DNA from: Candidatus Omnitrophota bacterium
GTDB lineage: Bacteria; Omnitrophota; Omnitrophia; Omnitrophales; Aquincolibacteriaceae
Length of the DNA stretch: 64,000 nucleotides
Direction of reading: 5' to 3'
NCBI GenBank assembly: GCA_035368605.1
Contig: DAOSLF010000003.1
Span: 889 to 64,888, forward strand
This document shows, in pieces, positions 8,620 to 33,943 of this stretch (the first letter of the stretch is position 1; the number at the start of each line of letters is the position of its first letter). The notes below the pieces were generated by a model. The model was not told the DNA's origin and made no database searches. It saw only the letters and a list, made by a program, of their open reading frames with translations. The translations under genes and the position numbers were made by a program.

Positions 8620-8856
8620 TTGCTACTATCTCCCGTTTTCTTCAGGGAATATAACTCATTTTATGATAATTTGCAAGTCAATAAAGTCTTCGATATAGCA
8701 TTAAATAGCTATTGATTGCTTTGTATAGTCGATAAACCAAATAATTGATTTAAATTCACTAAGGTAAAGAAGAATCCGGTTCGATAAGTAACCATGACGT
8801 TATACACTATCCGGTGCCGGTTGCAGACTCTCAAACATAAACGAGGAGCCTCTTTC

Positions 8857-15981: not shown

Positions 15982-17640
15982 TTATACCGCCGGCGGGGTT
16001 CCGCCCTGCGTCAGATGGGCGCGGCGGGGATTCGCCTTGCCGTACTCCATGAAGATCGCCTCGATCTCGTCATAATCCAGTTCGTTCTTCTGAAGGAGCT
16101 CATGGGCGAAACGCTCGAAGATGTCCTTTTCCTTGCGGAGGAGCGTATCCACCTCGGCCATGCAGTCCTTCAGGATCTTGTCGACGTCCTGGTTGAGCCG
16201 GGTCTTCATCTCTTCGGAGAGGAGCTGCGGGGCGACCGTGTAGTCTCCCACGAGACCCGACGGCCCCATCCCGTATTTCCAGACCATCGCGTTGGCATAA
16301 TTCGTCGCCTGATAGAAATCACTCCCGGGCCCTCCGCCGACACCGGTCGTGGTCGTTCCGAACTTGATTTTCTCCGCGACATAACTCGCGACGCAGACCT
16401 TGATCTCGGCCAGCATCGACTCGCGGTCGTTCAGGTGCCATTCCTCGATCGGCGTGGGATGCACGACACCGAGGGACATCTTCCGCGGGATAATCGAGGC
16501 CTTGAACACGTCGTCGCGCGGATGCAAAAGGTACGTGACGATCAAATGGCCCGTCTCGTGATACGCCGTCATCTCGCGTTCCTTGACGTTTATGGTCAGC
16601 TTCTGCTTCACGCCGAGCTCGATACGCTCGATCGCTTCGGAGATATCCTTCAGCGTCACGGAATCGCGTTTATTGCGGGTCGCGATCAGGGCCGATTCCT
16701 TGACGATGTTCTCAATGTCGGCCGGCGACTTGTCCACCGCCTTGCGCGCGAGACGCTTGCAGTCAACCGAGGCCTCGTGTTTGACCTTGCCCAGATAGAA
16801 CTTGAAGAGCGCCTCGCGGCCCTCGAGATTCGGTTTCTTGATATAGACCTTCCGGTCGAAACGTCCGGGACGGAGCAGCGCGGGATCGAGTACGTCCTCG
16901 GCCGCGTTCGTGGCCCCGATCACGACGATGTTCTCGGTCTTTTCCCCGAGACCATCCATCGCGACGAGTAGCTGGTTTTGGGTGGTGTTCCCTTCCCCGC
17001 TCCCGAACTGGCTGAAGGTGCGGCGGTGCCCCATCGCGTCAAGCTCATCAATAAACACGATGCAGCCGCCGAACCCGTAGGCCATGCGGGCGGCTTTCTT
17101 GAAGAGTTGGCGAACGCGGCTTGCGCCGACGCCGACGAAAATCTCGTTGAATTCGCTCGCGGCCATCGAAAGAAACGGCAGCCCCGCTTCCGTCGCGATA
17201 GCCTTCGCGAGATATGTTTTGCCGCACCCGGGAGGCCCCATCATCAGGATGCCGCGAAGAATCTTGCCGCCGATCTTCTTGAGGCGCGCATGGTCCTTGA
17301 TAAGCTGAACGACCTCCCAGCACTCCTCTTTGGCCTCGTCGATCCCGATCACGTCCGAAAACTTCACGTTCACGTCCTTGGCCGCGATATTCTTCTTTTT
17401 CTCGAGGTTCCCGAGGTTGCCGCGGAACAGCACCATATAAATATAGGCGAAGACCACCGCATTGATGACCATGATGATCATCTGGAGCGGCAACTGCGCC
17501 AGCGTGATATTGCGGTAGTAGCTTTCAAGCGACGCCATCCCCCAGATCGAGAGGAGGATCAGGATGAGGGAGGCGGCCACGATCGCGATCTTGATCCAGT
17601 GATCCATCCAAAAAAGCTTCCAGCGACGGTATGATTTCAT
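15982..17640 (-). CDS. ATP-dependent zinc metalloprotease, FtsH family paralog (AAA+ plus M41)
   Basis: Two N-terminal TM helices with only about a 20-aa loop between them. Walker A GPPGCGKT, Walker B IVFIDELD, second region of homology [21 protein letters not shown], zinc site HETGH. ATG 17640 has GGAGA 10 nt upstream; the track's TTG at 17649 is too close to it. Confidence 0.85.
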
Positions 17641-17801
17641 GTCAGACAATTCTCCTTTTCATTCTTGGCCTTCAAACTTGGGAAAGCGGCCTGGGAAGGC
17701 GGATAGTTGGGGTATTATATCCGTAAGTATTTCCGTTTTATAGAGGTATTTTGCCCTTTGGCCCCTGTCTTAACCCGAAACTCCGGGAGGAAAGGACAGT
17801 C

Positions 17802-18311
17802 TCACCACCAGTAGTCTTCCGAGGGAGCGGCATTCGTCGCCGCGGTTTCCGGGGAGATCCCCGCAGAGACTCCGCCTGCATCGGTCATCTCGGCTGCGGC
17901 ATCGAATCCGGGGAGAACTTCCGTTCCAGCGGCTGTCTCCTGTTCCCAATAGCCTTCCGCAGGCTGCTCGGGGGAAACCGGCTCTTCCGGCGCGGCAAGG
18001 GCATCCGCGGGAACCGCGGGTTCATCCCACCAGTTAAGTCCGGCCGTTTCCCCGGGCATGGCTTCCCTGGCCGCTGGTTTTTCGGCCTCGGGAGCGAACG
18101 GCGGCGCCGTCAGGAAGGTATCTTTGGGATTGTATTTAACACTATAAAGAAGAGCTCCTTTTTTTCCGTCTTTTTCCTCTTCCATCTTCTGTTTATAGAG
18201 AATGCCGTCCGTTTGCGTGTCCCGGATCGGATCCTCGCTCCTCCGGATCGCGGCAAGATTCGGCACGGCAAGCACGATCACCAAGGTTAAAAACAGACAT
18301 TTTCTGCTCAT
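17802..18311 (-). CDS. Hypothetical secreted Pro/Glu/Ala-rich protein
   Basis: I chose internal ATG 18311, which avoids overlap with uvrA. Signal-like MSRKCLFLTLVIVLAVPNLAA, low-complexity acidic C-terminal half ending EDYWW. Confidence 0.5.
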   Translation of the reverse strand: MSRKCLFLTLVIVLAVPNLAAIRRSEDPIRDTQTDGILYKQKMEEEKDGKKGALLYSVKYNPKDTFLTAPPFAPEAEKPAAREAMPGETAGLNWWDEPAVPADALAAPEEPVSPEQPAEGYWEQETAAGTEVLPGFDAAAEMTDAGGVSAGISPETAATNAAPSEDYWW

Positions 18312-18381
18312 GGATGCACCACGTAAAGAGTATCTGAAAAAACCGGTCCTGGCAAATCGCGCGGCGTCCGGAATACGGAGC

Positions 18382-21183
18382 TTAAACATTTATACCCTGC
18401 CCTGTGTTGTATTTCTTGAGGCACCGCCCCGTATAAGACCGCTCGCACGCGAGAAGACCCGGGACATCCCCTGCGTAGAGGACCTCGCCACCCCTGTCGC
18501 CCCCCTCGGGTCCGAGATCGATCACATGGTCCGCGAGACTGATCAGTCCCATATGGTGTTCGATCACAAAGAGCGAATGCCCGCGCGCGAGGAGCTCGTC
18601 AAAAGCCTTCAGCAAATGATGGATATCCCGCTCATGAAGACCGGTGGTCGGTTCGTCGAGGAGATAGAGGGATGGTTCCGGTCCCAATTCGGTAAGCTCC
18701 GACGCGAGCTTCAGGCGTTGCGCCTCCCCTCCCGACAACGTGAGCGTCGGCTGTCCGAGCCGGAGATAGCCGAGGCCGATCCTGCGGAGGATATCCAGTT
18801 TCTCGATGAGGCCCTTGCGATCCGCGAAGAAGACGGCCGCTTCATCCACGGTCATATTGAGGACCTGATCGATGTTCTTTCCCTGATATTCGATCTCGAG
18901 GATCTCGCCCTTGAAACGTTTCCCGCGGCAGGCTTCACAGGGGACAAAGACATCCGCGAGAAAATGCATCTCCACCTTCACGGCACCATCCCCCTTGCAG
19001 GCCGGACAGCGGCCTTTCTCGGAATTGAAGGAAAAGTGACCGGCATCGAATCCCGCGCGCCGGGCCGCCTGGGTCGCGGCAAAGAGTTTGCGGATCTCTT
19101 CGAACGCCTTCGTATAGGTCGCTGGATTGGACCGGGGAGAGCGGCCGATCGGTGACTGGTCGATCACGATCATCTTCGCGATGTGCTCGAATCCCGTGAC
19201 ACGGCCCGCTTCGCCAAGTTCTTCGCGGGAAACAGGTTCGCCGCGGGATTTCAGATAATGATGATAGAGAACATCATAGAGCAGCGTGCTTTTCCCGGAA
19301 CCTGAAACGCCGGTCAGGACCGTCAGCCGTCCGAGCGGGACCGTCACACTGATATTTTTCAGGTTATGCGCCCGCGCGTTTATGATCGTGATCGCCGCTG
19401 TTTTATTCCGGGCCGCGCGGCCGGATTCCGGAACGCGGAACGCCCGTGTCAGTTTTTCCCGTCCCGAAAGATAGCGGGCCGTGTGGGAGTCCTTCACGCC
19501 AGGGAGTCCCCGGACAGGTCCCTGATAAATGAGCCGTCCTCCTCCGGCGCCGCCGTCCGGACCGAGGTCGATCACTTCGTCGGCGGCTTCAATCATCGTC
19601 CGGTCGTGTTCGACCACAACAACCGTATTCCCGAGGTCGCGCAGTTTTTTGAGGAGATTGATCAGCATTTCGTTGTCGCGCTCGTGCAACCCGACGCTCG
19701 GCTCGTCCAGCACATACAGCGTGTCGACAAGCGCCGAACCGAGCGAGCTCGCGAGATGGATCCGCTCCACTTCCCCGCCCGAAAGGGTGCGGGACATCCG
19801 GTCAAGCGTGAGGTAGCCGAGGCCGACCTCTTTCAGAAAGCCGACACGCGCAAGAAGTTCCTCGTGCACGGGGCCGGTCTTCTCCCTTTCCGCAGGCCGG
19901 AATTCGATTCCGCGAAGGAATTCGAGCAGCCGGTCGACCGGCATCGCCTGGATTTCGGCGATCGTCTTGCCGCCGACCCGGTAATTCATCGCCTCCGGTT
20001 TCAGACGGGCGGTCCCGCAGGCCGAACACGGAATGTAGCCGCGGTAGCGGTTCAGGAAAATCCGAACGTGCATCTTGTAGATCTTCTTCGCGAGGTAATC
20101 GAAGAAATCCCGCACGCTGAAGTATTCGTCTCCTTCGCGTCCGTTAAAAATCCATTCCTGGTGCTCTTTTTTGAGTTTCGCCCAGGGCTTTTTGACAGGA
20201 ATGCGTTTCCTCGAACAGAAATCGAGCAGTTGCCCCTGCTCCCAGCGGGTGCTCGCCTTCGTCCACGGCTCGATCGCGCCGCCGCTGATCGAACGCGAAG
20301 GATCGGGAATGACGAGGTCCCGGTCGATCGTGATGACGCGTCCGAACCCCTGGCAGACGGGGCAGGCGCCGAGCGGGCTGTTGAACGAGAAAAGGTTGGA
20401 CGTGGGTTCGGGGAACGTCCGGTCGCAGGAAATACAGCGGAGCTTCTCGGAAAAGGTCAATCGCTCGCCATCGGTCCATGCCTGGACCTCGCCCTGCCCG
20501 TAACGGAACCCGGTCTCGAGCGAATCGATCAGACGTTCCCGTTCATTCGCGGCGGGGATCAGTTCGTCAATCCCCACGAAAAGTTCCTCAGGCGCCGGCT
20601 TGGCCGCGACGACCGCACTTCCCTCGCGCCATTCGCCTTTATGAAAGAACGGGCCAAACCCTTGCCGCTCGAGTTCGGCGATATTCTCCTTCAGGTATTT
20701 TTTCCCGGATCTCCCGACCGCGATCCGGATCACGATCCGGAACTTTCGGCCCGAAGCGTCCGCGATCAGCCGGTCCGCCGTGCCCGCCGGGTCGTGGCTC
20801 TCAACCTCTTTCCCGCAATCCGGACAAGTCAGGCGCCCCGCCCGGGCGAAAAGGACCCGGAGATAGTCGTTGATCTCGGTCTGGGTGCCAACCGTCGAGC
20901 GGGCATTTGTGACGATATTCTTGGCCTGGATCGCGATCGCGGGAGGGATTCCGGTGGCGCTTTCGAGATCCGGCTTCGGCATCCGCTCGAGGAATTGGCG
21001 GGCATACGCGGAAACGGACTCGAGATAGCGGCGCTGTCCCTCCGCATACAGGGTGTCAAAGGCAAGGGATGATTTTCCCGATCCGGAGACACCCGTTACG
21101 ACATAGAACTTCCGGTGCGGAAGCCTGAGGTGGAGGTTCTTGAGATTGTGGGTCCTGACCCCGCGGAGCTCGATGGAATCCAA
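18382..21183 (-). CDS. uvrA: Excinuclease ABC subunit A
   Basis: Two ABC modules (VVTGVSGSGKSSLAF, VLTGVSGSGKSTLLY) and Zn-finger Cys pairs. In-frame TTG 21183 gives LDSIELRGVRTHNLKN, a typical UvrA N-terminus, and about 934 aa. The listed ORF to 21354 overlaps the upstream lipoprotein gene. Confidence 0.9.
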   Translation of the reverse strand: MDSIELRGVRTHNLKNLHLRLPHRKFYVVTGVSGSGKSSLAFDTLYAEGQRRYLESVSAYARQFLERMPKPDLESATGIPPAIAIQAKNIVTNARSTVGTQTEINDYLRVLFARAGRLTCPDCGKEVESHDPAGTADRLIADASGRKFRIVIRIAVGRSGKKYLKENIAELERQGFGPFFHKGEWREGSAVVAAKPAPEELFVGIDELIPAANERERLIDSLETGFRYGQGEVQAWTDGERLTFSEKLRCISCDRTFPEPTSNLFSFNSPLGACPVCQGFGRVITIDRDLVIPDPSRSISGGAIEPWTKASTRWEQGQLLDFCSRKRIPVKKPWAKLKKEHQEWIFNGREGDEYFSVRDFFDYLAKKIYKMHVRIFLNRYRGYIPCSACGTARLKPEAMNYRVGGKTIAEIQAMPVDRLLEFLRGIEFRPAEREKTGPVHEELLARVGFLKEVGLGYLTLDRMSRTLSGGEVERIHLASSLGSALVDTLYVLDEPSVGLHERDNEMLINLLKKLRDLGNTVVVVEHDRTMIEAADEVIDLGPDGGAGGGRLIYQGPVRGLPGVKDSHTARYLSGREKLTRAFRVPESGRAARNKTAAITIINARAHNLKNISVTVPLGRLTVLTGVSGSGKSTLLYDVLYHHYLKSRGEPVSREELGEAGRVTGFEHIAKMIVIDQSPIGRSPRSNPATYTKAFEEIRKLFAATQAARRAGFDAGHFSFNSEKGRCPACKGDGAVKVEMHFLADVFVPCEACRGKRFKGEILEIEYQGKNIDQVLNMTVDEAAVFFADRKGLIEKLDILRRIGLGYLRLGQPTLTLSGGEAQRLKLASELTELGPEPSLYLLDEPTTGLHERDIHHLLKAFDELLARGHSLFVIEHHMGLISLADHVIDLGPEGGDRGGEVLYAGDVPGLLACERSYTGRCLKKYNTGQGINV

Positions 21184-21199
21184 GGAAATCCCGGACGAA

Positions 21200-21589
21200 C
21201 TACCTGGCGTCGCTCGGGAGCCTGTCGCCGATCCAGTCGATGATCTCGCCGCTGCTGAGCCGCTGCCGGGAGTCGGGCGCGAGAGACACCGAGGTCTGTT
21301 CCCGGTCGACCCGTTTGACGAGGATCGAGATAACGCGTTTGTCAGCGTCGTCAAAGCGGGTGTACTCGGTGTTGCGGACCGTGATGAGGCCTTTTTCCTT
21401 GTCGGTGGACTCGAGTTCCCATCCGGGCTTCGCGTTCAGAGCCATCAGGGTGTTCATGTAGGTCAGGTCATAAGGCTTGTTATAAAGAAGGACCTCGTCG
21501 TGGACCGGGAGGACCTTGTGGACCGACGAACAGCCGGGAAGATAGAGGCACGCGAGAACGGCAACACACATCAGGATTTTTTTCATCAT
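21200..21589 (-). CDS. Small lipoprotein (129 aa)
   Basis: ATG 21589 preceded by AAGGAGA. MMKKILMCVAVLACLYLPGC lipobox. No recognised family. Confidence 0.7.
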   Translation of the reverse strand: MMKKILMCVAVLACLYLPGCSSVHKVLPVHDEVLLYNKPYDLTYMNTLMALNAKPGWELESTDKEKGLITVRNTEYTRFDDADKRVISILVKRVDREQTSVSLAPDSRQRLSSGEIIDWIGDRLPSDAR

Positions 21590-21655
21590 GGATATCTCCT
21601 TAACCCCGCAGGGTCTCGATTTGAAGCCGGCTTTTTTGTCCGTCACCGGACAGGG

Positions 21656-24600
21656 CTAGAACTTCCCCGTCATCCGCACGAACGGACCGCTGTTATGATA
21701 ATTGTTCGCGTCCCGGAGGTCATCCGTAAAATCGGTAAAATTATAACCGATCCCGATCCGCACGTAATCATAGATTTCACGATCAACCTCGAAAAGCATC
21801 CCGTGCCGTATCGTATCGAGCGCGGAGGATTGCCACAAGAGCCGATATTCGGCCGCGATATCCCATTTCCGGGTCACATGGAAATTAATGCGGCTGACAG
21901 ACAAGAAATTACCGGTATCCGTCTCATCAAGCGTGTTACGGGCCAAAGTGAACAAGTCGCGATCCTGGGTGATCAGCGTTGCCCGTTTCCACGCCAGTTT
22001 CTGTGCGAGACCGAAGAACCGATTCACGTCATAGATCGCGTCCATTGAGATAACATGCGCGATCTCATGGAACATGTTTTCGTTGTAATAAGAATTCACG
22101 TACTGAAAATCATTTCCGATGTCTCTCAAATAGCTATACTTAAAGAGAAAATTCAGGTGGTCAAGACCAATAGGGCGATAGGCAAAAGCCACGGTAAAAT
22201 CCGCAAAATTCCCAAGATTTGTTTGCTTGCTTTCATCCACGAGATCGAAAAGATAGGTGGCGCCATAATCAAATTTGGTCAGAAAAGTCAGCTCGCGATG
22301 AATTTGATATTGAAATGAATTGCGCAAGACCAGCTGATTACCCTTGGGATACGCACCATTGCTTCTCAGTTCCGCATAAGTCCGCGCACGGAGTTTTCTG
22401 CCGTCCGCGTAGGCCAGATAGCCTCCATAAACGTTGGAGCTGTTATTCTGCGCCAGGCTATTTTCAACCAATGTCAGCAGATTCCGGGCCATCGAACTGT
22501 CCAAGTGCCGCCGCTCATACTTCGCGCCGTAATCCCAGTGGTCGTTCAGCGCGCCCTCATAGCCGAGAATATCCGCAAAACCATCCACGCCCTGGTAGGA
22601 GGAGTACTCGCGTTCCGAATAAATTCGCGATTTCTCGGTAAGCGAAAAAGAGCTCCCGATCGCGGTTGAGAGTGTCCTCGAACCAATGCCGCGGTCGATC
22701 GAGCGGAGGTTCGCATAGCTTCGCGCGCCGTTGCCGTGGTTCCTTTCGAAGCCGAAGTAGGTCGAATCCCCCAGCGGACCGAACATCTGCTCGATATAAC
22801 CGAAGACATCCTTGATCAGCTCGCAACGCACACCGCCGCCAAACTGGTAATTGTCCGCCGAGTGAAGAGTCGTTTGCGCTTTCACATACGGCAAGAGGCG
22901 GTCATTGATATGGTAGCCGATCTTGGTCGCGATGCCGTGCTCATAGGGGATTTCGGAATAAAGCGAGGGCGTCAGGTTGGCAGCGTCCTGGACTTGGTCG
23001 ATGTTGCTGCGCTGGTATTCGGCCTGGGCAAGGTATTTGCCGTTATCGTAGGCAAGCTGGGCCGTGTGGGTCTGCAGGTCTTCGTAAGGGGCCATGATAT
23101 TATGCTCGGCAAGAGGCATCAACTGGCCGATCACCTCGCTTGAATCGAAACGGTAGCGGGCCGAGAAATTATCGGTGAACTTGTAACGGCTCGCGAGACC
23201 GTATTTCTTGAAACCTTCCTGGCTCGTCATGTGGCCGTTCGAAAAACTCGGCTCCACGCCCTGGACGTAACCGCTCACTTCGAGGTTCCTCACGGGTTCC
23301 GACTGCGCGCGGATCAGGTAGGCGTCCTCGCGCGGCCGCGTGTTGTCCCCGCGCAGGTTCCCTTCCGTCCCGAAGCTGAGCCCTCCGTCGAAAGAGACCG
23401 AGGAATCCATCTGCTTGTTCGCGGTGGTCGCGTACTCCGCGGTGATCTTGGTGTTGCGGCCGAACTTCATCATCAGGTCAACGCCGCGCATGTCGTAATC
23501 GTTGCCGCCGGTCCGTTTTTCCTCGACCGCCGTTGCACCGAGCCTCACGTGATCGCCGGCCCACACGTAACCGCGCAGACCGCGGTTGCCGATCTCCGGA
23601 AGGTCCGACGAGGAAGGTTCATACTCGTAGTCCACGATCAGGTAAACGGGATTGCCGTCCATGATATCGGCCGAAACGAGCGAATCCGTCGCGGCGACGG
23701 ACGAGAGCGGGCGGGAAAGAAGGATGCGGCCTTCGGCGTAGCTGATCTCGTAATCCGTCCCTTCCGTCATGTCGTGGCTCGTCAGCACCATCCCCGTAAT
23801 CTTGTCGCGGATCTCGACGCGAATCTTTTCGCTACCTTCGATCAGGTTCCGGTTGCGCGTGTAGAAAAGGGAGCCGCCCGTCGCGTAGAACTCGTTATGG
23901 TCGGCCCGTTTGTCCGAATCAGCCCAGAAAAACCGGAGACCGCGCTTCGGGTCCCCGTAGACCGTGCTCGCGACCGAATCGAAACTCCCCTTGAGGCCGG
24001 AGAGCGTCCGGTTATAGGTGGCCAGTTCGGTATCCGTGAATTCCGTCTTGAAGCTCCCCCATTTCAGATAAGACTTGTCCATCTCGACCAGCACATAGAG
24101 CCGCTGGGCCGTGTCCTGCGCCTCGTAGTCGCGTGCCGAGTAGTCGCCGTAGACCGGATAGTATTCGTCAGGGTCGAGGTTCGTGAACAGCGCGGAACGG
24201 CGATCCGAGGTGTCGTAGTGAGCCTTGACGAGGAACTTCCCCTTGAGTTTCGATTTCAGGAAAAAGGCCGCGCGGCCGTCCTCGGTGAACCCGTCGCGGT
24301 AGGCGTCGGAATCCGCGGCTTCCATCGCCCCGTTCGCGAAATTGATGCCGAGCTGCTCCTCGCCAAGGGCGACCATGAAGAACGTGCTGTCCTTGACCTT
24401 GATCTTTTCCTGGTAGGTCGTGCTTTCCCCTTTCGGATCCGCGGCCATGATGTTGAACTCGTGCTCGCCGGGCTCGACGAAGAACTCCTTCTGGAACATG
24501 CCGGTCTCGGGGTCCACTGTCACGGGGAGGTCGTTGATCATGACCTGGTACTCGGGTCTTGTCTTGCCCTGGACCCGGACCGTCGGTTTCGCGATGAGGG

Positions 24601-26419
24601 GGATGCTGCGCTTGCCGTCCTTAAAGAGGTTGAAATCCCCGACCGCCGGAAGCTCGGGCTGGTAGTTCTTCTGGGCCCTGGGATCGAGCTTGTTGTAGAC
24701 CTCGAAGAACTTGAGGGTTGTCCAATCCTCGTGGTGCTTCGCATCGCGAACCTTGAGCTGGTACGAATAGACGCCGGGCTTGATCATGAAACCATTCTCG
24801 GCCTTCCCGTCCCACGTCACCTCCGCGGGCGGCGCACCGATGCCGTAACCGGTCCAGACGGGCACGCCCATTTCGTCGCGGACCTCGATGGCCCATTTCT
24901 TGACGAACCTGGCGTAATTGGTGTCGAGCCTGAAGAGCGCGTCCTTTTCGAGGACCCCGACGCCGAGCTTCAGGAGCTCCGGTTCCATCATAATGTCAAG
25001 GTCCGGCCGGGAGATATCAACCCCCTGCGTGACCATGACCATCAGGTCCTTGCGGAACGCCTCGGGAATGCCGGAGGGCGGGAGCAGGACGGCAAAACTC
25101 GCCTTGCCCATGAGACCGGGCGTGATCTTCACGAGATAGGTCTCTTCGGTGATGAATTTCGTTCCTTCGGGAAGCGTATGCCCGTCGATCTTGACGAGAT
25201 GGCGGCCCGGCGCGACGCCGGGGATGTGATAGCGGCCGTACTCATCGGTGACAACCTTGATGCCCTCTTCCGTATAAAGCGTCACCCACGGCACGCCCTC
25301 TTCACCGCATTGCTGGACGCCGTCCTGGTTAAGATCGTTAAAGACCTTGCCGATGATGGTCCCCTCCTCAAAGATCGGATCGCCCACGACCGTGAACTGC
25401 ACGTGCGCCGTTTCGGAAAGCGTGCCGCCGCTCCCCTCCACCGTAACCTCCAGCGAATATGTCTTCCCGAGCTGGACACCGCTCGTCACGAGCGTGGCAA
25501 ACGTCACGTCATACGAGGCGCCGGGTCCGATCGTCCCGAGCGGGATGAGCAGCGAGCCGTCCTGCCCGGCGACCGACTTCCCGTTCACGCGGATCGAATG
25601 CTCGGCGTAGTCGAACCCGTTCGGAATCTTGACCCGCATGTTCGAGTTCGTGAAGGTGTTGCCGGAACTATTCCGGAAATGCGCATTAATCCCGATCGCG
25701 TCTCCTTTCTTGATGTGACGCTTGGACGCCGCAACCGTAAGCTTTGCCGGATTCACTTCCGCGTTCAGATCGTCATACAGAATATTTCCATATCGGGGAA
25801 CTGCACCGGCGCTGACACCGTTGGCATCCAAAACAAAAACAACTTTGGCCGCATTTTCAGGAACGATCGCAGTTATCGAAAAGAGCGTCCAGACGCCCAC
25901 CGGAGCGGTGGCAGCAGTGATTTTTCCCGTTTCAACGGGAGTTCCGATTTTCACCCCGGAGGCGTCCTCGAACTCGATCTTCATTCTCCCCCCCGTGTCC
26001 GCTGCCATGATGTCCGATTGGGCATAGCCCGAGAAAGTAATGTAATCTCCCGGCTTCACGTTGCTGTAGGTCTGGAACGTGAAGGTGCTTTCATAAAAAG
26101 CCGGCGCGTCAAAATAGGCCTGCAAATAAAGCGCGTAGGAGCCGTTCCTCGGGGCGAGAAAACCGGGCGGCAACCCGGCGGGATTAACCACTCCATCCCA
26201 GCGCCCCATTTTGGCGGTCGTGTTCAAAGGCCTGGTGTTATCTGCCCAGTTATTCTGCGTCCCGTCCCCAAGCGGCTGTTCAAAACTCGGGTTGCCGAGC
26301 ACGTTGGCGAAGGCGGAAGGCGTAAAAGCGAAAAACAGCCACAAACCACAAAACCATACGGCAATACGAAGCCGGGGCGCTTTCTTGGCGGGCATGTGGT
26401 GTGTGGCGCGTGACATCAT
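21656..26419 (-). CDS. Very large multidomain outer-membrane protein (1,587 aa): CBM-like N-terminus, DUF11-like repeat, SdrD-B/Cna-B-like and FlgD-Ig-like modules, about 900-aa C-terminal beta-barrel-like region
   Basis: Signal peptide ...WFCGLWLFFAFTPSAFA. NVLGNPSFEQPLG (CBM4/9-like). LTVAASKRHIKKGDAIGINAHFRNSSGNTFTN...IPNGFDY (DUF11-like). GTIIGKVFNDLNQDGVQQCGEEGVPWVTLYTEEGIKVVTDEYGRYHIPG (SdrD-B-like). VTWDGKAENGFMIKPGVYSYQLKVRD (FlgD-Ig-like). Aromatic-rich alternating C-terminal part ending ...VRMTGKF (terminal Phe, OMP hallmark). Confidence 0.8.
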   Translation of the reverse strand: MMSRATHHMPAKKAPRLRIAVWFCGLWLFFAFTPSAFANVLGNPSFEQPLGDGTQNNWADNTRPLNTTAKMGRWDGVVNPAGLPPGFLAPRNGSYALYLQAYFDAPAFYESTFTFQTYSNVKPGDYITFSGYAQSDIMAADTGGRMKIEFEDASGVKIGTPVETGKITAATAPVGVWTLFSITAIVPENAAKVVFVLDANGVSAGAVPRYGNILYDDLNAEVNPAKLTVAASKRHIKKGDAIGINAHFRNSSGNTFTNSNMRVKIPNGFDYAEHSIRVNGKSVAGQDGSLLIPLGTIGPGASYDVTFATLVTSGVQLGKTYSLEVTVEGSGGTLSETAHVQFTVVGDPIFEEGTIIGKVFNDLNQDGVQQCGEEGVPWVTLYTEEGIKVVTDEYGRYHIPGVAPGRHLVKIDGHTLPEGTKFITEETYLVKITPGLMGKASFAVLLPPSGIPEAFRKDLMVMVTQGVDISRPDLDIMMEPELLKLGVGVLEKDALFRLDTNYARFVKKWAIEVRDEMGVPVWTGYGIGAPPAEVTWDGKAENGFMIKPGVYSYQLKVRDAKHHEDWTTLKFFEVYNKLDPRAQKNYQPELPAVGDFNLFKDGKRSIPLIAKPTVRVQGKTRPEYQVMINDLPVTVDPETGMFQKEFFVEPGEHEFNIMAADPKGESTTYQEKIKVKDSTFFMVALGEEQLGINFANGAMEAADSDAYRDGFTEDGRAAFFLKSKLKGKFLVKAHYDTSDRRSALFTNLDPDEYYPVYGDYSARDYEAQDTAQRLYVLVEMDKSYLKWGSFKTEFTDTELATYNRTLSGLKGSFDSVASTVYGDPKRGLRFFWADSDKRADHNEFYATGGSLFYTRNRNLIEGSEKIRVEIRDKITGMVLTSHDMTEGTDYEISYAEGRILLSRPLSSVAATDSLVSADIMDGNPVYLIVDYEYEPSSSDLPEIGNRGLRGYVWAGDHVRLGATAVEEKRTGGNDYDMRGVDLMMKFGRNTKITAEYATTANKQMDSSVSFDGGLSFGTEGNLRGDNTRPREDAYLIRAQSEPVRNLEVSGYVQGVEPSFSNGHMTSQEGFKKYGLASRYKFTDNFSARYRFDSSEVIGQLMPLAEHNIMAPYEDLQTHTAQLAYDNGKYLAQAEYQRSNIDQVQDAANLTPSLYSEIPYEHGIATKIGYHINDRLLPYVKAQTTLHSADNYQFGGGVRCELIKDVFGYIEQMFGPLGDSTYFGFERNHGNGARSYANLRSIDRGIGSRTLSTAIGSSFSLTEKSRIYSEREYSSYQGVDGFADILGYEGALNDHWDYGAKYERRHLDSSMARNLLTLVENSLAQNNSSNVYGGYLAYADGRKLRARTYAELRSNGAYPKGNQLVLRNSFQYQIHRELTFLTKFDYGATYLFDLVDESKQTNLGNFADFTVAFAYRPIGLDHLNFLFKYSYLRDIGNDFQYVNSYYNENMFHEIAHVISMDAIYDVNRFFGLAQKLAWKRATLITQDRDLFTLARNTLDETDTGNFLSVSRINFHVTRKWDIAAEYRLLWQSSALDTIRHGMLFEVDREIYDYVRIGIGYNFTDFTDDLRDANNYHNSGPFVRMTGKF

Positions 26420-27994
26420 TTAAAACCGCCTGTGCGAGAACTTCATTCCAAAACGGAGGTCGTAACGGATGGCATCGGGAGCTTCCCCGTCCTGCTTGGA
26501 GTGCTGAACTTTACCGATCGCAAGCCATTCCCCGAAGATCGCTATTTTGGAAAGCCACTCGTCTTCTTTCCAGCGATAGGACCTGAACGGCATCCAGCGG
26601 ATTCCGGGAGCAAGGTAATACTGGTTTTGATAATGATAAGAGTATTCGTCATTGCTTGTATGCTCAAAACGGAGGTAAGGCATCAGGACCAATTCATCGT
26701 TGATCGGGTTATGCGGGAGCGGGATAGCGGGCAGCTTGATCCCCATGATCACGGAGGAGTTCAGAATCCAGGCGTTGAAATGACGCATCTCGCTAAAATC
26801 GGTTTTATGCCACCGGTAGTCGCCGAAATATTCGCCCCACACATATTGACGGAGATAATCGGCAAAACGTTCGGGCTTTCCTTCGTCCAGAGGCGGCAAC
26901 TCCGTGCCCCATTCATAGAAAATCTGAACCCCGGCAACCAGATCGTAGTCTTTCGCGTTCTGGATCTCGTCCTTGATGTTGTAACGGTTGCCGTATTTGA
27001 TATAGAACTTGTAATTCCGGACCCATTCAAGGAGCGGGATGTCCCAGCCGAACGGGCGGAAGTTGTAAAGCCAGGGATTGCGCGCGAAGGGACGCCATTC
27101 GAATCCGGCGAAGATATCGAAGTGGCTCTTGTAATCCGCCCCGACCGCTTCGATCGTTGTCGTCTCCTCGAAGAAGGGATCGATGGTGCTGAGCGGGGCG
27201 CGGATGCCTTTAAGGACGATGCGGTTCGTCCAGTAGCCGACCTGGCTGTTGAAGTTCCTGTTCTCGAGGTTGGTCATGCGGTAGGTTGTTTCGCCGAAGG
27301 ACTGCCACAGCACCGGTTCGCCGGCCGGCTCGCCCTGGAAGGGGCCCCACATCTTTTCCCCGAGATCGAGCTGGTCCGCGAATTTAAGAACGAGCTCTTC
27401 TTCCTTCTGGTACTGGGCCTTCGTCTTCACGGGCTCCGGTTTTTCAGGCGCGACAAACACCGGCACGGCCTGGACGCTCTTTGCGAAATTCCCGCCCTGG
27501 GATTCGATCCTCGATTTGACGCGGGTCACTTCCGCGGTCGCCTGGGCGGCCGTCGGGAAGGCCTTGTCCCCGACCCAGAAAAGATCGGACGTTCCCCCGC
27601 CCGCGAGCGGGAGGGGAAGTTTGCGGATCTCTACGCCTTCGAAATTCGCGACCTGCAGGTTCTTCTTGATGTATTCGTCGATCGCCTTGATGTCTTTCAG
27701 GCCGGGAAGGAAACGCGATCGGAGCGCGCCGCCCCCGAAATCTGTCACGATGGAATATTCGGCGTTCTGCGGCCGCGAGCGGGTCTTGATCACGGGAAAG
27801 CCGCGGACCCCGGAGACCTTCAGGTCGAGTTTCTGGCCGGACGGGGCGTAGAAATGCTCGGCGTAGAGATTTCTCCCGGGAGTTTCGGCCGGAGCGGCTT
27901 CAGGCTCGGTCGTCAGGATGCCCGCAAACGCAGGGGAGGAACAGAAAAGAACCGCGCTTGCCAAAACAGGGGGTATGAAATTTTTAAGTATCAT
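26420..27994 (-). CDS. Secreted, probable outer-membrane beta-barrel protein (524 aa)
   Basis: Signal peptide MILKNFIPPVLASAVLFCSSPAFA. Aromatic-rich C-terminal half ending ...FGMKFSHRRF. Its stop TAA directly abuts the ATG of the 1,587-aa gene (TAAATGATG). Confidence 0.7.
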   Translation of the reverse strand: MILKNFIPPVLASAVLFCSSPAFAGILTTEPEAAPAETPGRNLYAEHFYAPSGQKLDLKVSGVRGFPVIKTRSRPQNAEYSIVTDFGGGALRSRFLPGLKDIKAIDEYIKKNLQVANFEGVEIRKLPLPLAGGGTSDLFWVGDKAFPTAAQATAEVTRVKSRIESQGGNFAKSVQAVPVFVAPEKPEPVKTKAQYQKEEELVLKFADQLDLGEKMWGPFQGEPAGEPVLWQSFGETTYRMTNLENRNFNSQVGYWTNRIVLKGIRAPLSTIDPFFEETTTIEAVGADYKSHFDIFAGFEWRPFARNPWLYNFRPFGWDIPLLEWVRNYKFYIKYGNRYNIKDEIQNAKDYDLVAGVQIFYEWGTELPPLDEGKPERFADYLRQYVWGEYFGDYRWHKTDFSEMRHFNAWILNSSVIMGIKLPAIPLPHNPINDELVLMPYLRFEHTSNDEYSYHYQNQYYLAPGIRWMPFRSYRWKEDEWLSKIAIFGEWLAIGKVQHSKQDGEAPDAIRYDLRFGMKFSHRRF

Positions 27995-28000
27995 TAAAAA

Positions 28001-28030
28001 TTTTTAGTTTTTGGCTTTCGGCTTTTGCAA
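28001..28030 (-). promoter_or_regulatory. Putative sigma70-type promoter giving a leaderless transcript for the 524-aa gene
   Basis: On the minus strand: TTGCAA (28030-28025), 18 nt, TAAAAA (28006-28001), 6 nt, then ATG at 27994. No SD; AT-rich surroundings. Confidence 0.4.
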
Positions 28031-31252: not shown

Positions 31253-32434
31253 TTATACGAGAATGACCTTGGCAGGTTCGAAGCCGTTGAAATTGGGGAC
31301 AGCGCTCGCGCAGGAGTAGGCGCCGATATTCTTGACGTAAACAACATCCCCGACGAACAACTCGGGGAACTCTTCGTTCGATGTGAGGATATCAAGCGAA
31401 TCGCAGGTCGGGCCCGCGATCACGCTCATGGTCTTCTGCCCGCGTCGCAAGGTCTTGAACTCGTACTTGCAGTGATCGAACATCATCCCTGAAAAATCCT
31501 GGTAGATGCCATCATTGATGTAGTAGAAGTTCTTGTTGTCGCGGAAGGCCTTCCCCACCACCTGCGTCACGAGCACGCCGGAGGGACCCGCGAAAAACCG
31601 CCCCGGCTCGGCGATAAAATGAGTGGATTTCGGAAAGAGCTCCTTCATCTGCTTGCGGATCTGCGCGGCCATCCGCTCAAAGTTGATGCCGATCTCGTTT
31701 TCAAAGTGAGGTATCGGGAACCCGCCTCCGATATCGACGATCGAAAGCGGCATGCCGTTCTCTTTGGCCTCCCTGAAAATCCCGGCCGTGAGCTCGAGCG
31801 CCTGCAAATAATTTTCGACGTTCGTCGACTGCGAACCGACGTGAAAGCTCACGCCTTTCGGCACGAGCCCGAGGCTTTTCGCCTTCCGCAAGAGACAAAA
31901 CCCCTGGTCCGGTTCCGCGCCGAACTTAAGCGACAGCTGGACGACCGAGCCGCGGTTCTCGACGCGGATCCTCAAGATCACGTGCGCTCCGGGGAAACTC
32001 TCCGCGATCTTGTAAAGCTCGGCTTCGTTGTCGAAGGTCATGAGCCGGACGCGGCGCTTGCGGGCGGTGACGATATCCTCTTTCGACTTGATCGTATTCG
32101 CGAAGATGATGTGGCTCGGTTTCGCGCCCTGCTTGAGGACGAGTTTCATCTCGGCCGCGCTCGCGACGTCGAAGCAGGCCCCGAGCTTCGCGAAATATTT
32201 GACGATCCGCGGATGCGGATTGGCCTTGATCGCGTAATAAGGCGTCACTTCCGGCAGGGCCTTTCGAAAGCGGTTGAACTGCTTCTCGAGGACACTCTTG
32301 CGGATCAAGAGAAAGGGCGTCTTATGCTTTTTCAGCATTTGCCGGATCAGATTCTCGATACCCGAGGACTCCGTCGGCCTGACCGCCTTGTTTAAAAACG
32401 AAATGCTCCCACTCTCAAGAAGGGGCTGTTTCAT
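31253..32434 (-). CDS. PLP-dependent Orn/Lys/Arg decarboxylase (group IV, ornithine-decarboxylase-like)
   Basis: YYAIKANPHPRIV (PLP Lys), VDIGGGFPI, GPTCDSLD. Lies 6 nt downstream of hss. Confidence 0.85.
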   Translation of the reverse strand: MKQPLLESGSISFLNKAVRPTESSGIENLIRQMLKKHKTPFLLIRKSVLEKQFNRFRKALPEVTPYYAIKANPHPRIVKYFAKLGACFDVASAAEMKLVLKQGAKPSHIIFANTIKSKEDIVTARKRRVRLMTFDNEAELYKIAESFPGAHVILRIRVENRGSVVQLSLKFGAEPDQGFCLLRKAKSLGLVPKGVSFHVGSQSTNVENYLQALELTAGIFREAKENGMPLSIVDIGGGFPIPHFENEIGINFERMAAQIRKQMKELFPKSTHFIAEPGRFFAGPSGVLVTQVVGKAFRDNKNFYYINDGIYQDFSGMMFDHCKYEFKTLRRGQKTMSVIAGPTCDSLDILTSNEEFPELFVGDVVYVKNIGAYSCASAVPNFNGFEPAKVILV

Positions 32435-32440
32435 TCCGGA

Positions 32441-33943
32441 TCAACCCCTGTCGTCCACGAGGAAGGAGTTGAACTGCCAAAGCTCGTCCTTTTTCGGCGC
32501 CTTGGCCCCGAACCTCAGGTACTTCGTGTTGAGATTCTGAAGCGGCGTCCAGTCCGAGGGGATCGAAACGAACGGGACGATGTAAGGGGTCGCGAACTTC
32601 AGGATGAACTCGTGATCGATATCATCCGGGAGCAGAAAACCCTTGCGCGGATTGTCGATCATCCAGAGCGCCGCGGCGACCACGGAGACCGCCACCTGGA
32701 GAGTCGTCGCCTGCTGGTGCGCGACCAGTTTGCGCGTCGTGTGGATGTCGAGAAGCGAACCGCACCACCAGGACGTGAAATCATGTCCCATCAGGAGCAC
32801 ACCGAGCTCGTCGCGACCGTCAATGATATCGTCCGAAAGGATGCGCTGGTCCTCGTGCAGCTTGTACTGGCGCATCCGGAGCTCCTGCATCGAAAGGACC
32901 GCGGAATCGCAGGGGCAGTACGCGTAATGCACGGTCGGGCGGTACACGGCCTTGCCGTTCTTCCATACCGTGAGACGGTCGGAGATCGAAAACGCCTCGC
33001 CGTGGCGGATCACCATGCCGTTGATCTCCCCACAGGGCACCCACGAACGAACAAACGTGTTCATGCCAAGCGTGCCGAGGCAAATCTGGTTCTTCGGCCC
33101 CGTCCTGTGCTCATAGCCGTCCCTGGGAAGTTTCTTCTCGTGAGTCCCCCAGCCGAGTTCGGCCGGCGCGACACCCTCCTCATAGAACCCTTCGATCGAC
33201 CAGGTGTTCACGAACTCGTTGACGCGTTTCGGAACGTCCGTGACCTGCGTGTCTCGTTCGCTGATATGGATAACCTTGACGCCTGTTGTCTGCGCGAGCT
33301 TCGCGAAGTTCTTCCCGGCAAGAAAGCGCTCGAGGTTCTTCGCGCGCGGATCCCGCGGCTTTTCCTTCAGAATCTTCTTCGCGATATCGATCAGGGCCTT
33401 CTTTGTGAAATGGGACACAAGGCCGGGATTCGCGCCGTGGTCGACGATCGAAGTCGCGCCCTTCTCGTCGCCCCACTTCTCCTTCATGAGCTTGCGAAGC
33501 TTCATGTGGCGATAGTAGAGCGTGTATTGGGTCGGGTCAGTTCGCTTGTCGTCACGGTAAGGGTCCCATTCCTCGATCGAGGTGTTGACATAGAGGATGT
33601 TGTTTGCGCGACACCAGTCGAGGATCTCCCATGCGTCGATATTCCAGGCGAGGTCGATGATCATATCGCCGCACCCGACGTATTTCGCAAGAAGCTTCCT
33701 GTAATTGTCCCTCGTGACGCGATCGAAGACGTAGCGGACGCCTTTCTTCAGCGCGTCTTTTACACGGTGGCGGTTGTCGACGAAGTCCATAATCGTGATG
33801 TTCTTCGCGGGCATGTCGAAGTGACGCAGGATCAGCGGTGTCGCACATTGCGACACACCCCCGCACCCGATAATCAAGACCTTTCCGTTGAACTTCACGC
33901 GGGTCTCGGGGATGCTGGCTTTGACCTTAGGGTATTTGAACAC
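32441..33943 (-). CDS. hss: Homospermidine synthase (bacterial type)
   Basis: GTG start with GGAGGGTGA upstream. IIGCGGVSQCATPLILRHF, VTRDNYRKLL, GANPGLVSHF, ISERDTQ, FVNTWSIEGF, AELGWGTHE, VYRPTVHYAYCPCDSAV, DELGVLLMGH are collinear with bacterial HSS as I recall it (Blastochloris viridis). Confidence 0.85.
   Translation of the reverse strand: MFKYPKVKASIPETRVKFNGKVLIIGCGGVSQCATPLILRHFDMPAKNITIMDFVDNRHRVKDALKKGVRYVFDRVTRDNYRKLLAKYVGCGDMIIDLAWNIDAWEILDWCRANNILYVNTSIEEWDPYRDDKRTDPTQYTLYYRHMKLRKLMKEKWGDEKGATSIVDHGANPGLVSHFTKKALIDIAKKILKEKPRDPRAKNLERFLAGKNFAKLAQTTGVKVIHISERDTQVTDVPKRVNEFVNTWSIEGFYEEGVAPAELGWGTHEKKLPRDGYEHRTGPKNQICLGTLGMNTFVRSWVPCGEINGMVIRHGEAFSISDRLTVWKNGKAVYRPTVHYAYCPCDSAVLSMQELRMRQYKLHEDQRILSDDIIDGRDELGVLLMGHDFTSWWCGSLLDIHTTRKLVAHQQATTLQVAVSVVAAALWMIDNPRKGFLLPDDIDHEFILKFATPYIVPFVSIPSDWTPLQNLNTKYLRFGAKAPKKDELWQFNSFLVDDRG

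Follow-up and report, generated by a model that had tools for sequence, protein, structure and literature searches.

Giant outer-membrane β-barrels that operate together with partner barrels or plug proteins, as in SprA-PorV-Plug and LptDE, are a known pattern, and the largest solved single-chain outer-membrane barrel, that of SprA, has 36 strands. Smaller barrels behind variable or extended N-terminal parts are found in the autotransporters (about 280 aa, 12 strands) and in SlpA/OmpM of Deinococcus, where an extended periplasmic stalk with a cell-wall-binding module leads into a C-terminal barrel of very large size (30 strands in SlpA); the chaperone-usher ushers FimD and PapC have 24 strands. 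According to the main text of Solan et al. (PNAS 2021; PMC8346858), known single-chain barrels range from 8 to 36 strands, and a 'superfamily of large OMBBs' with 38- and 40-strand barrels is predicted from hairpin and barrel-closing contacts.

When examining a 64,000-nucleotide stretch of DNA from a Candidatus Omnitrophota bacterium (hereinafter, the window), we identified, on the minus strand at positions 21200-27994, genes for two outer-membrane proteins, A (524 aa) and B (1,587 aa), and a lipoprotein, C (129 aa; Table 1). The same logic that was applied to the large barrels of Solan et al. yields about 38-40 strands and a closing contact for B, and families 002 and 003, which their main text presents without accessions, domain architecture or function, can be likened to B by description alone; that main text does not include A or C partner genes, OmpA-plus-stalk architectures or the Omnitrophota synteny described here.

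The trio resembles LptD-LptE and SprA-PorV-Plug in that a giant barrel is accompanied by a small lipoprotein or by a partner barrel and plug. With autotransporters, B shares a Sec signal, a variable adhesin-type passenger and a C-terminal barrel that is constant and has an aromatic last residue; moreover, β-helix passengers occur among the relatives of B, and in A itself a 12-strand barrel comes after a helix. However, the barrel of B, with about 900 aa and about 40 strands, is far larger, and its relatives differ from autotransporters in having periplasmic Ig and OmpA domains between the passenger and strand 1 and in including barrel-only members. Deinococcus SlpA/OmpM is similar to B in the layout of stalk and barrel, but B shows no sequence homology to it, its stalk consists of Ig-like β-sandwich domains without SLH or coiled coil, and the wall-binding module in the family of B is of the OmpA type and is absent from B of the window.

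Several class assignments were tried and rejected. B gave no PF03797 signal expected of a classical autotransporter (T5aSS), no PF00577, PapC_N or PapC_C match expected of an usher (with no chaperone or pilin genes nearby), and no SLH match expected of an SlpA/OmpM tether-porin; nor does it conform to the TonB-dependent transporters (Plug PF07715 and a 22-strand TonB_dep_Rec barrel). Neither B nor C carries OstA, LptD or LptE signatures in Pfam or NCBIfam, A does not conform to Omp85/TpsB (POTRA domain(s) and a 16-strand Bac_surface_Ag barrel), and the OmpA-family domain (PF00691) is absent from every window ORF of 100 aa or more, A, B and C included.

The locus and its conservation in Omnitrophota

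The gene layout given in a preliminary description of this DNA was borne out in all its parts. The A/B junction reads ...CGGTTT TAA ATG ATG TCA (TAAATGATG is genuine), so the two genes abut; public gene calls place the start of B at Met9, 24 nt downstream (P0001, 1,579 aa), and the gap is thus at most 24 nt with either start. The ORF coordinates agree with a lipoprotein gene 66 nt beyond B: C lies within the listed ORF 21200..21646(-), where the ATG at 21589, with AAGGAG 7 nt upstream, yields the 129-aa product, which begins MMKKILMCVAVLACLYLPGC and, by inspection, shows the bacterial lipoprotein signature (...YLPG-C20, the lipobox cysteine being residue 20). Also by inspection, A and B have Sec-type signal peptides ending in AFA and a terminal Phe (...SHRRF in A and ...MTGKF in B). 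Both are real genes rather than chance ORFs because each is matched by over 200 full-length homologs with identities of 40-80%.

Table 1. Genes of the trio and protein regions, in window coordinates
Feature	Position	Strand	Residues	Description
Gene A	26420..27994	-	524 aa	Outer-membrane protein; stop codon included; signal peptide aa 1-24; from ORF list
A, N-domain	27470..27877	-	40-175	Compact alpha/beta domain; pLDDT about 85-93; 48% mean ortholog identity
A, helix	27371..27421	-	192-208	Conserved charged helix joining N-domain and barrel; 66% identity
A, barrel	26423..27310	-	229-524	Predicted 12-strand outer-membrane β-barrel
Gene B	21656..26419	-	1,587 aa	Stop codon included; signal peptide aa 1-38; start abuts A stop
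B, tip	25385..26305	-	39-345	Variable; N-domain (39-222) and DUF11/CLIPPER-like domain (223-345)
B, stalk base	24401..25384	-	346-673	Conserved; SdrD_B-like (346-450), FlgD_ig-like (451-575), Glucodextran_B-like Ig (576-673)
B, barrel	21659..24400	-	674-1587	Predicted giant β-barrel module, about 38-40 strands; Phe at end
B, insert	23705..23944	-	826-905	Small β-sandwich inserted after about six barrel strands
Gene C	21200..21589	-	129 aa	Lipoprotein; lipobox LPGC, Cys20; 66 nt past B

Among the 72 Omnitrophota species genomes recovered by an A-based search, all of which encode A, the gene order dapA-dapB-A-B-(C)-uvrA is fixed. The co-localisation of the trio suggested earlier also held when the neighbourhoods were compared: B comes next after A, on the same strand and with short gaps, at all 65 testable loci, and C is found at 41 of 50. 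The protein that we liken to LptE is missing from the other nine loci (18%), and in seven genomes B directly adjoins uvrA with no C between; C is dispensable to the module. Identity among its orthologs is 40-45%, and G19 and C20 do not vary in the three orthologs compared. A and B are apparently single-copy at the locus and evolve about as slowly as dapB. However, the entire lysA-dapF-dapA-dapB...uvrA-ftsH-like block is syntenic phylum-wide, so the adjacency of A, B and C is by itself weak evidence for shared function, and the putative link between the three, which comes from synteny only, should be read with the synteny of the whole dapA-uvrA neighbourhood in mind.

Structure of the encoded proteins

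In the AF2 model of A (pLDDT 78.5), the N-domain, which has no sequence match in Pfam or PDB, precedes strand 1 of the barrel and, for this reason, appears to be periplasmic. E198, E199 and L203 are invariant in the connecting helix, and the barrel has near-invariant loop lengths (62% identity with 1% gaps among orthologs).

The last 914 aa of B form, in an AF2 model of moderate quality (pLDDT 70.5 overall, below 50 at fragment residues 1-90), one continuous antiparallel β-meander of about 40 strands, six ahead of the insert and 34 behind it by DSSP; we give the count as 38-40 because the neighbours of fragment 332-336 covary directly, so that this segment is unlikely to be a strand of the barrel. 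Coevolution analysis of 303 barrels (Meff 230) gave hairpin contacts for all the top 11 pairs, followed, at rank 12 of 105,340, by fragment pair 14-909 (E687-R1582 of B), in which the residue states are compensatory (E/D-R, D-N, N-D) and by which the first and last strands pair antiparallel; the sheet is unbroken across fragment positions 632/654 (z 7.4). This contact-like covariation between the first strand and the last supports a single closed barrel, and the protein shows the hallmarks of outer-membrane β-barrels, namely, a Sec signal, a self-closing amphipathic meander and a C-terminal aromatic residue. The prediction agrees with the earlier proposal of a membrane barrel of about 900 aa, far larger than those of porins and autotransporters, and the model predicts more strands than in any solved single-chain barrel. 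The first strands and the insert show 66-72% ortholog identity, and the insert resembles a plug and ranks with the best-conserved blocks of the barrel family. The best Foldseek match of the barrel is SlpA (E 1e-6, with a TM-score of only 0.24), and SprA and LptDE are also in the list, with TM-scores of 0.12-0.21 (LptD/LptE 0.12-0.15).

Five domains precede the barrel of B, of which the two at the tip are variable (ortholog identity 31% with 19% gaps in the N-domain, 40% in the DUF11/CLIPPER-like domain) and the three barrel-proximal ones conserved (SdrD_B-like 74%, FlgD_ig-like 60%, Glucodextran_B-like Ig 56%). The domain assignments proposed in the preliminary description stood in part. The matches to SdrD_B (residues 358-422, 29.7 bits, right at the Pfam cutoff), FlgD_ig (492-558, E 3e-4) and DUF11 (227-326, E 0.028), the latter two below the cutoff, are weak in B itself, and the same domains are matched strongly, in unchanged order, in its relatives; by contrast, a CBM-like N-terminus is unsupported, no CBM model matching residues 30-225 even at E <= 10. 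B contains no OmpA, SLH, LysM or SPOR domain. The base of the stalk, at a minimum, should be periplasmic, because its last Ig domain abuts strand 1, which under standard outer-membrane protein topology is entered from the periplasm, and because about 45 of 150 relatives carry an OmpA domain N-terminal to that Ig domain; the binding domains proposed earlier are only putatively exposed. The stalk measures about 20 nm by our estimate, a length that would fit within the periplasm and in that respect speaks against surface display.

Relatives of the giant barrel

A profile search with the barrel of B retrieved, from many phyla, 3,704 clusters at 50% identity, of which 1,804 had E <= 1e-30, so that the family comprises at least 3,704 such clusters; the named sources are Wallbacteria, Sedimenticola, Pseudomonadales, Thermodesulfovibrionia, Deferribacteres, Planctomycetes, Elusimicrobia, Deltaproteobacteria and Polarisedimenticolia. 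The barrel is C-terminal in every profile-matched relative, and the part N-terminal to it varies from 0 to about 6,700 aa. Long relatives combine at least 10 CLIPPER/DUF11 domains with pilin-like Cna-B and β-helix stalk domains, all of which are stalk domains of extracellular fibrillar adhesins (PMC12617251). An OmpA peptidoglycan-binding domain is present in about 45 of the 150 top relatives, including proteins of 4,000-5,000 aa, 250-400 aa ahead of the barrel and between FlgD_ig and Glucodextran_B, thus N-terminal to the last Ig domain; there are relatives with 2,600-6,700 aa of CLIPPER, Cna-B or β-helix stalk upstream of this domain. At the other extreme, barrel-only or single-Ig relatives (P0295, P0393, P0447) carry signal peptides, which implies a barrel function that needs no passenger and speaks against a reading of the family as passenger anchors.

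No family in Pfam, NCBIfam or PDB covers A, C or the barrel of B, in accord with the earlier remark that the three map to no named system. The giant-barrel family is large, widespread, without a database name and unstudied, and a family of about 40 strands and thousands of members that lacks a Pfam or NCBIfam model represents a sizeable blind spot in envelope annotation. The notion of a dedicated trio holds within Omnitrophota, where the genes are co-localised; it does not extend to the family, most members of which occur without A or C (neither gene lies beside relatives outside Omnitrophota), and C is dispensable even within the phylum.

Possible roles of the module

Our tentative interpretation is that the trio consists of an uncharacterised giant-barrel anchor of a stalked surface protein, a phylum-specific partner barrel and an accessory lipoprotein. 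Under this scenario, the barrel of B would be anchor and conduit in one: the Ig domain fused to strand 1 (and, in relatives, the OmpA domain where present) would remain periplasmic, whereas the chain would thread back out through the lumen, predicted to be very wide, so that the distal, fast-evolving tip (residues 39-345) is shown on the cell surface, and the conserved SdrD_B and FlgD_ig domains, together with the inserted sandwich, could fill or gate the lumen. A would be an obligate partner docking to B that may stabilise B, help to assemble it or provide the periplasmic anchoring that OmpA-bearing relatives have in cis, and C a non-essential accessory, possibly an LptE-like lumen plug. Given the slow evolution of A and B, comparable to that of dapB, and their occurrence in every genome examined, the A-B(-C) complex appears to be a core envelope or surface structure of small, possibly host-attached cells rather than a strain-specific adhesin. 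Standard topology would leave the N-terminal chain of B in the periplasm, and outward threading is what we infer. A broader version of this proposal, which we regard as rather unlikely, is that B, a single-chain barrel of about 40 strands and so larger than SprA, exemplifies a new, widespread display or anchoring route in which a passenger is threaded through its own barrel while the periplasmic domains before strand 1 (OmpA in many lineages) pin the assembly to the cell wall, the Omnitrophota form being a universal core with A as its dedicated 12-strand partner barrel and C as plug lipoprotein.

The position of strand 1 immediately after the last Ig domain and antiparallel to the last strand, the genuine OmpA domain at the same position in relatives, the top Foldseek match to the SlpA tether-porin, the barrel-only relatives, the housekeeping rates and universal, apparently single-copy presence of A and B, and the estimated correspondence of five Ig-like domains to the width of the periplasm are all compatible with a somewhat unlikely alternative, that the entire stalk is periplasmic and either holds the outer membrane at a distance from the peptidoglycan or tethers the two, or else extends to the inner membrane. 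In that case, the giant barrel would be a major plugged pore, comparable in function to SlpA or OmpM of Deinococcus or to OmpA, with A and C as further subunits and the periplasmic domain of A contacting the wall. However, the 2,600-6,700 aa stalks upstream of OmpA are too long for the periplasm, which implies an outward route for the family as a whole; within B, the tip shows the lowest conservation and the most indels, unexpected if it binds an invariant ligand such as peptidoglycan; and B of the window has no wall-binding domain of the kinds sought.

It is improbable that B is a gated translocon for other cargo (a polymer, a protein fibre or prey-derived material), analogous to ushers or the T9SS SprA, with the inserted sandwich as plug, A serving as shuttle or gate barrel in the way that PorV serves SprA, and C as a plug lipoprotein. 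So wide a barrel must be plugged, partner barrels and plugs typify giant barrels, and SprA and LptDE are among the Foldseek matches, but the conserved neighbourhood contains only dap genes and uvrA, with no cargo, chaperone, pilin, polysaccharide or energising genes, the Pfam scan of B gave no Usher, T9SS, LptD or secretin signal, and A and C do not accompany relatives outside Omnitrophota. To our knowledge, Omnitrophota are not among the T9SS phyla. For the uptake machine that had also been suggested, we found no specific evidence. Very improbable, finally, is that A, B and C are independent envelope proteins whose order is frozen across Omnitrophota, as the phylum-wide synteny of the block, the loci lacking C and the B-family members without A would allow: the stop of A abuts the start of B in the window, and in every genome the two genes share a strand and are separated by short gaps; A, with more than 200 homologs, is confined to Omnitrophota-labelled sequences except for one Verrucomicrobiae-labelled and one unclassified MAG, and is present in all 72 genomes; and its loops are conserved in length and sequence as an interface would be, unlike those of a free porin.

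The family unites fibrillar-adhesin stalks, a module that binds peptidoglycan and a giant barrel within a single polypeptide, which hints at an anchor that bears load and, possibly, at a route of export outside the described secretion types. Omnitrophota are mostly ultra-small cells, possibly predatory or host-dependent, and we know of no pure-culture isolate ever obtained. A and B, usually with C, constitute a universal surface or envelope module among the genomes from the A-based search, and the trio is a target for localisation, for cell-capture antibodies and for tests of host attachment in this phylum.

A linked gene pair and its lipoprotein neighbour in Omnitrophota

Genes A and B, which encode a 524-aa barrel protein and a 1,587-aa giant-barrel protein, form a tightly linked pair that is conserved throughout the phylum Omnitrophota and is followed, in the window and in most related loci, by gene C, which encodes a small lipoprotein (see the table). 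In the ORF list, the three genes are co-directional and jointly span 21200-27994, in agreement with the three-gene module of the preliminary description, and A and B indeed abut, with a junction that reads TAA ATG ATG; the public gene call of B (P0001) starts 24 nt later. By inspection, the Sec signal peptides of A and B both end in AFA and the C-terminal residue of both proteins is Phe, again as had been proposed. The lipoprotein gene was also found where it was expected, 66 nt downstream of B, with AAGGAG located 7 nt upstream of its ATG, and its product contains the lipobox LPG-C20, which is retained in the C orthologs. The end of dapB lies 65 nt upstream of A, and uvrA begins just downstream of C. 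The mechanically called uvrA ORF, with a TTG start, overlaps C by ~150 nt; this overlap is an ORF-calling artefact because the conserved UvrA sequence starts near 21185, just past the stop codon of C. A scan for promoters and terminators yielded nothing exceeding the shuffle expectation, and neither A nor B has a paralog elsewhere in the window.

All close homologs of A and B are proteins from Candidatus Omnitrophota MAGs annotated as 'hypothetical'. When one genome per GTDB species was scanned, A was detected in 72 Omnitrophota species, and tblastn over these loci showed a constant order, dapA-dapB-A-B-(C)-uvrA. The neighbourhood proved to be conserved: B follows A in 65 of the 65 loci with downstream DNA, and C is detectable in 41 of the 50 testable loci; in 7 loci, B meets uvrA within ~150 nt and C is truly absent. 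The orthologs show 42-82% (A) and 39-78% (B) identity to the window proteins, matching DapB (48-78%), so A and B evolve at a housekeeping rate. In one distant lineage (contigs L001, 13061-16223, and L002), a 587-aa gene without a Pfam match and mgtE separate C from uvrA; the former, which lies on the same strand and immediately after C, could be a fourth component of the module in that lineage. Past uvrA, a small protein and a 461-aa protein, both without Pfam matches, flank a short FtsH-like AAA/M41 protease (~550 aa), and the same order of these genes recurs in distant Omnitrophota contigs.

Features of the A, B and C genes and proteins and of other window genes (genes in window numbering, protein segments in residues)
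Feature	Position	Strand	Remarks	Mean identity to window
A	26420..27994	minus	524 aa	
A, alpha/beta domain	40-175		confident, AlphaFold2	
A, charged helix	192-208		conserved; AlphaFold2; then disordered linker	
A, 12 long strands	229-521		AlphaFold2	
B	21656..26419	minus	1,587 aa	
B, N-domain (tip)	39-222			31%, 19% gaps
B, DUF11-like (tip)	223-345		Pfam DUF11 at 227-326, below cutoff	40%
B, SdrD_B-like	346-450		Pfam SdrD_B at 358-422, exactly at cutoff	74%
B, FlgD_ig-like	451-575		Pfam FlgD_ig at 492-558, below cutoff	60%
B, Glucodextran_B-like Ig	576-673		weak match at ~610-675, scan of excised pieces	56%
B, first barrel strands				69-72%
B, inserted sandwich	826-905		short strands	66%
B, rest of barrel				46-55%
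C	21200..21589	minus	129-aa lipoprotein; ATG inside mechanical 148-aa ORF	
uvrA, mechanical ORF	18382-21354	minus	TTG start	
Small protein past uvrA	17802-18389	minus		
FtsH-like protease	15982-17649	minus		
461-aa protein	14589-15974	minus		
FadL/Toluene_X family	8794-10272	plus	Pfam E 3e-52	
Decarboxylase- and dehydrogenase-like pair	31253-33943	minus		
lysA-like gene	36447-37727			
AsmA-family protein	46962-49445	minus	827 aa	
1,380-aa protein	50775-54917	minus		

Predicted structures of A and B and the giant-barrel family

Searches with the whole proteins and with excised sub-domains detected no Pfam match for A or C and no Pfam or NCBIfam match for the barrel or the N-domain of B; NCBIfam returned nothing meaningful for any of the three proteins. 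The Pfam matches to B are all weak and confined to its N-terminal part. Of the modules originally assigned to B, SdrD_B holds at the cutoff and FlgD_ig and DUF11 fall below it, yet the relatives share the SdrD_B-FlgD_ig order; the proposed CBM-like identity of the N-domain is unsupported, given that the excised pieces gave no CBM match. When profiles of all three proteins, and the N-domain of A, were searched against PDB sequences, SdrD was the only match. An origin of the A and B barrels as paralogs was also considered and rejected (hhalign probability 0.6%).

The AlphaFold2 model of A, built from a 42-sequence alignment (pLDDT 78.5), establishes this protein as a 12-strand outer-membrane barrel with an N-terminal domain. 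The barrel shows 62% identity and 1% gaps among orthologs, and since the loop lengths are conserved, unlike those of free porins, A appears to be interface-bearing.

The C-terminal part of B (674-1587), for which a giant barrel of about 900 aa had been predicted, is almost all beta in the AlphaFold2 model (pLDDT 70.5, pTM 0.69), with six strands, a small inserted sandwich and then ~34 more strands. No Foldseek match covers the whole module (best TM-score 0.25), and no solved barrel of comparable size class matches it well. We analyzed the topology by mean-field DCA of up to 303 family barrels (Meff 230), in which the top couplings, as expected, join consecutive strands as antiparallel hairpins; among them is a pair across a low-confidence loop, 632/654 counted from B residue 674, with a z of 7.4. 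The top long-range pair, 14-909 in the same numbering (E687/R1582 of B), ranks 12 of 105,340 and shows compensatory states, namely, E/D-R in 235 sequences, D-N in 43 and N-D in 17. This pair marks the seam at which the first strand meets the last, and it speaks for a single closed barrel of ~38-40 strands rather than for two. Of all pairs in the family, 719/733 covaries by far the most strongly (46/60 from residue 674; DCA 4.7 vs at most 1.9 for the rest), and its two residues switch between Tyr-Ser, in 163 sequences, and Phe-Ala, in 100. Although AlphaFold modelled the region with low confidence, this hairpin is therefore real, and it probably involves a specific hydrogen bond.

B is a stalked giant outer-membrane barrel within a large unnamed family. 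At E <= 1e-3, a four-sequence barrel profile matches 3,704 clusters, counted as representatives at 50% identity, of which 1,804 also pass E <= 1e-30. The match always lies at or near the C-terminus, in proteins of ~900 to 7,612 aa, and the identified sources include Wallbacteria, Sedimenticola, Pseudomonadales, Thermodesulfovibrionia, Deferribacteres, Planctomycetes, Elusimicrobia, Deltaproteobacteria and Polarisedimenticolia, along with further Omnitrophota paralogs. These relatives are annotated as 'hypothetical', 'DUF11', 'OmpA family' or 'outer membrane beta-barrel protein'; no Pfam model for the barrel was found, and weak OMP_b-brl, OmpA_membrane and DUF2490 matches occur only at the extreme C-terminus of some of them. 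The minimal forms consist of a signal peptide and the barrel, with or without one Ig domain in between, and long forms carry adhesin stalks, among whose components are CLIPPER/DUF11 domains (at least 10), pilin-like Cna-B domains and a beta-helix; stalk domains of this sort have been characterised as extracellular (PMC12617251). In about 45 of the top 150 representatives, including proteins of 4,000-5,000 aa, the barrel is preceded at a distance of 250-400 residues by bona fide OmpA domains, one or two per protein, in the order SdrD_B, FlgD_ig, OmpA, Glucodextran_B, barrel, which is exactly the order in B minus OmpA; judging from these domains, many family members would bind peptidoglycan close to the barrel. 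No OmpA-like domain was detected in A, B, C or the rest of the window. Outside Omnitrophota, the relatives have no A or C neighbours but often TPR genes or TPR tails. Outside the A-B-C lineage, TPR-protein genes were observed 3' of giant-barrel relatives in contigs L004 (15943-16905) and L078 (7348-8652), and four proteins (P0119, P0396, P0401 and P0415) have a TPR or coiled-coil extension past the barrel; such lineages may use another periplasmic partner.

Giant predicted barrels are already in the literature: from the same kind of evidence, Solan et al. proposed barrels of 38 and 40 strands, which they termed a 'superfamily of large OMBBs' (PMC8346858). In the literature searched, including Omnitrophota, giant-gene and CLIPPER papers, we found no description of the three-gene module, its phylum-wide conservation or the stalk/OmpA/giant-barrel architecture.

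Topology and possible function

In known outer-membrane proteins, the C-terminal Phe is periplasmic, and the first and last strands of the B barrel pair antiparallel, so the Ig domain fused to strand 1, and likewise the OmpA domain of the relatives, should be periplasmic. These topology rules, as well as the OmpA domains in relatives, the barrel-only members and the short Omnitrophota stalk, favour a fully periplasmic strut or tether-pore like SlpA, OmpM or OmpA, the main rival explanation, which we regard as rather unlikely. The long extracellular-type stalks of the relatives, on the other hand, must extend outside the cell, and we tentatively prefer a model in which B is a threaded, surface-displayed stalk. 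In this, the simplest model for the family as a whole, the chain would thread through the very wide lumen in an autotransporter-like manner, with the periplasmic anchor domains inserted before strand 1; the variable, indel-rich tip of B would be exposed, and the conserved SdrD_B/FlgD_ig base and the insert would lie within the lumen or gate it. This threading model fits the conservation gradient of B, from the variable tip to the highly conserved base.

Given the linkage of the genes and by analogy with LptE and PorV-Plug, we infer that A may be a docking, assembly or anchoring partner of B, and C an accessory plug; that this linkage is mere synteny seems highly improbable. A role of B as a translocon for other cargo appears improbable, if less so. 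For autotransporters, ushers, LptDE, TBDTs, Omp85, SLH tether-porins and the OmpA family, the hallmarks were tested one by one and are lacking in the window proteins, which bears out the earlier view that no named system applies; the module may share something of the mode of action of several of these systems, but it is a member of none of them.

Other genes of the window

The window also encodes a FadL/Toluene_X-family outer-membrane transporter, so this genome encodes ordinary, recognisable outer-membrane barrels as well. An AsmA-family (TamB-like) envelope protein adjoins a further large protein without annotation, of 1,380 aa, that gave no credible Pfam match (marginal TOBE_2 only). Between dapF and the lysA-like gene lie an Orn/DAP/Arg-decarboxylase-like and a saccharopine-dehydrogenase-like gene, presumably a carboxy(nor)spermidine synthase/decarboxylase pair; the same pair is found in a related contig.
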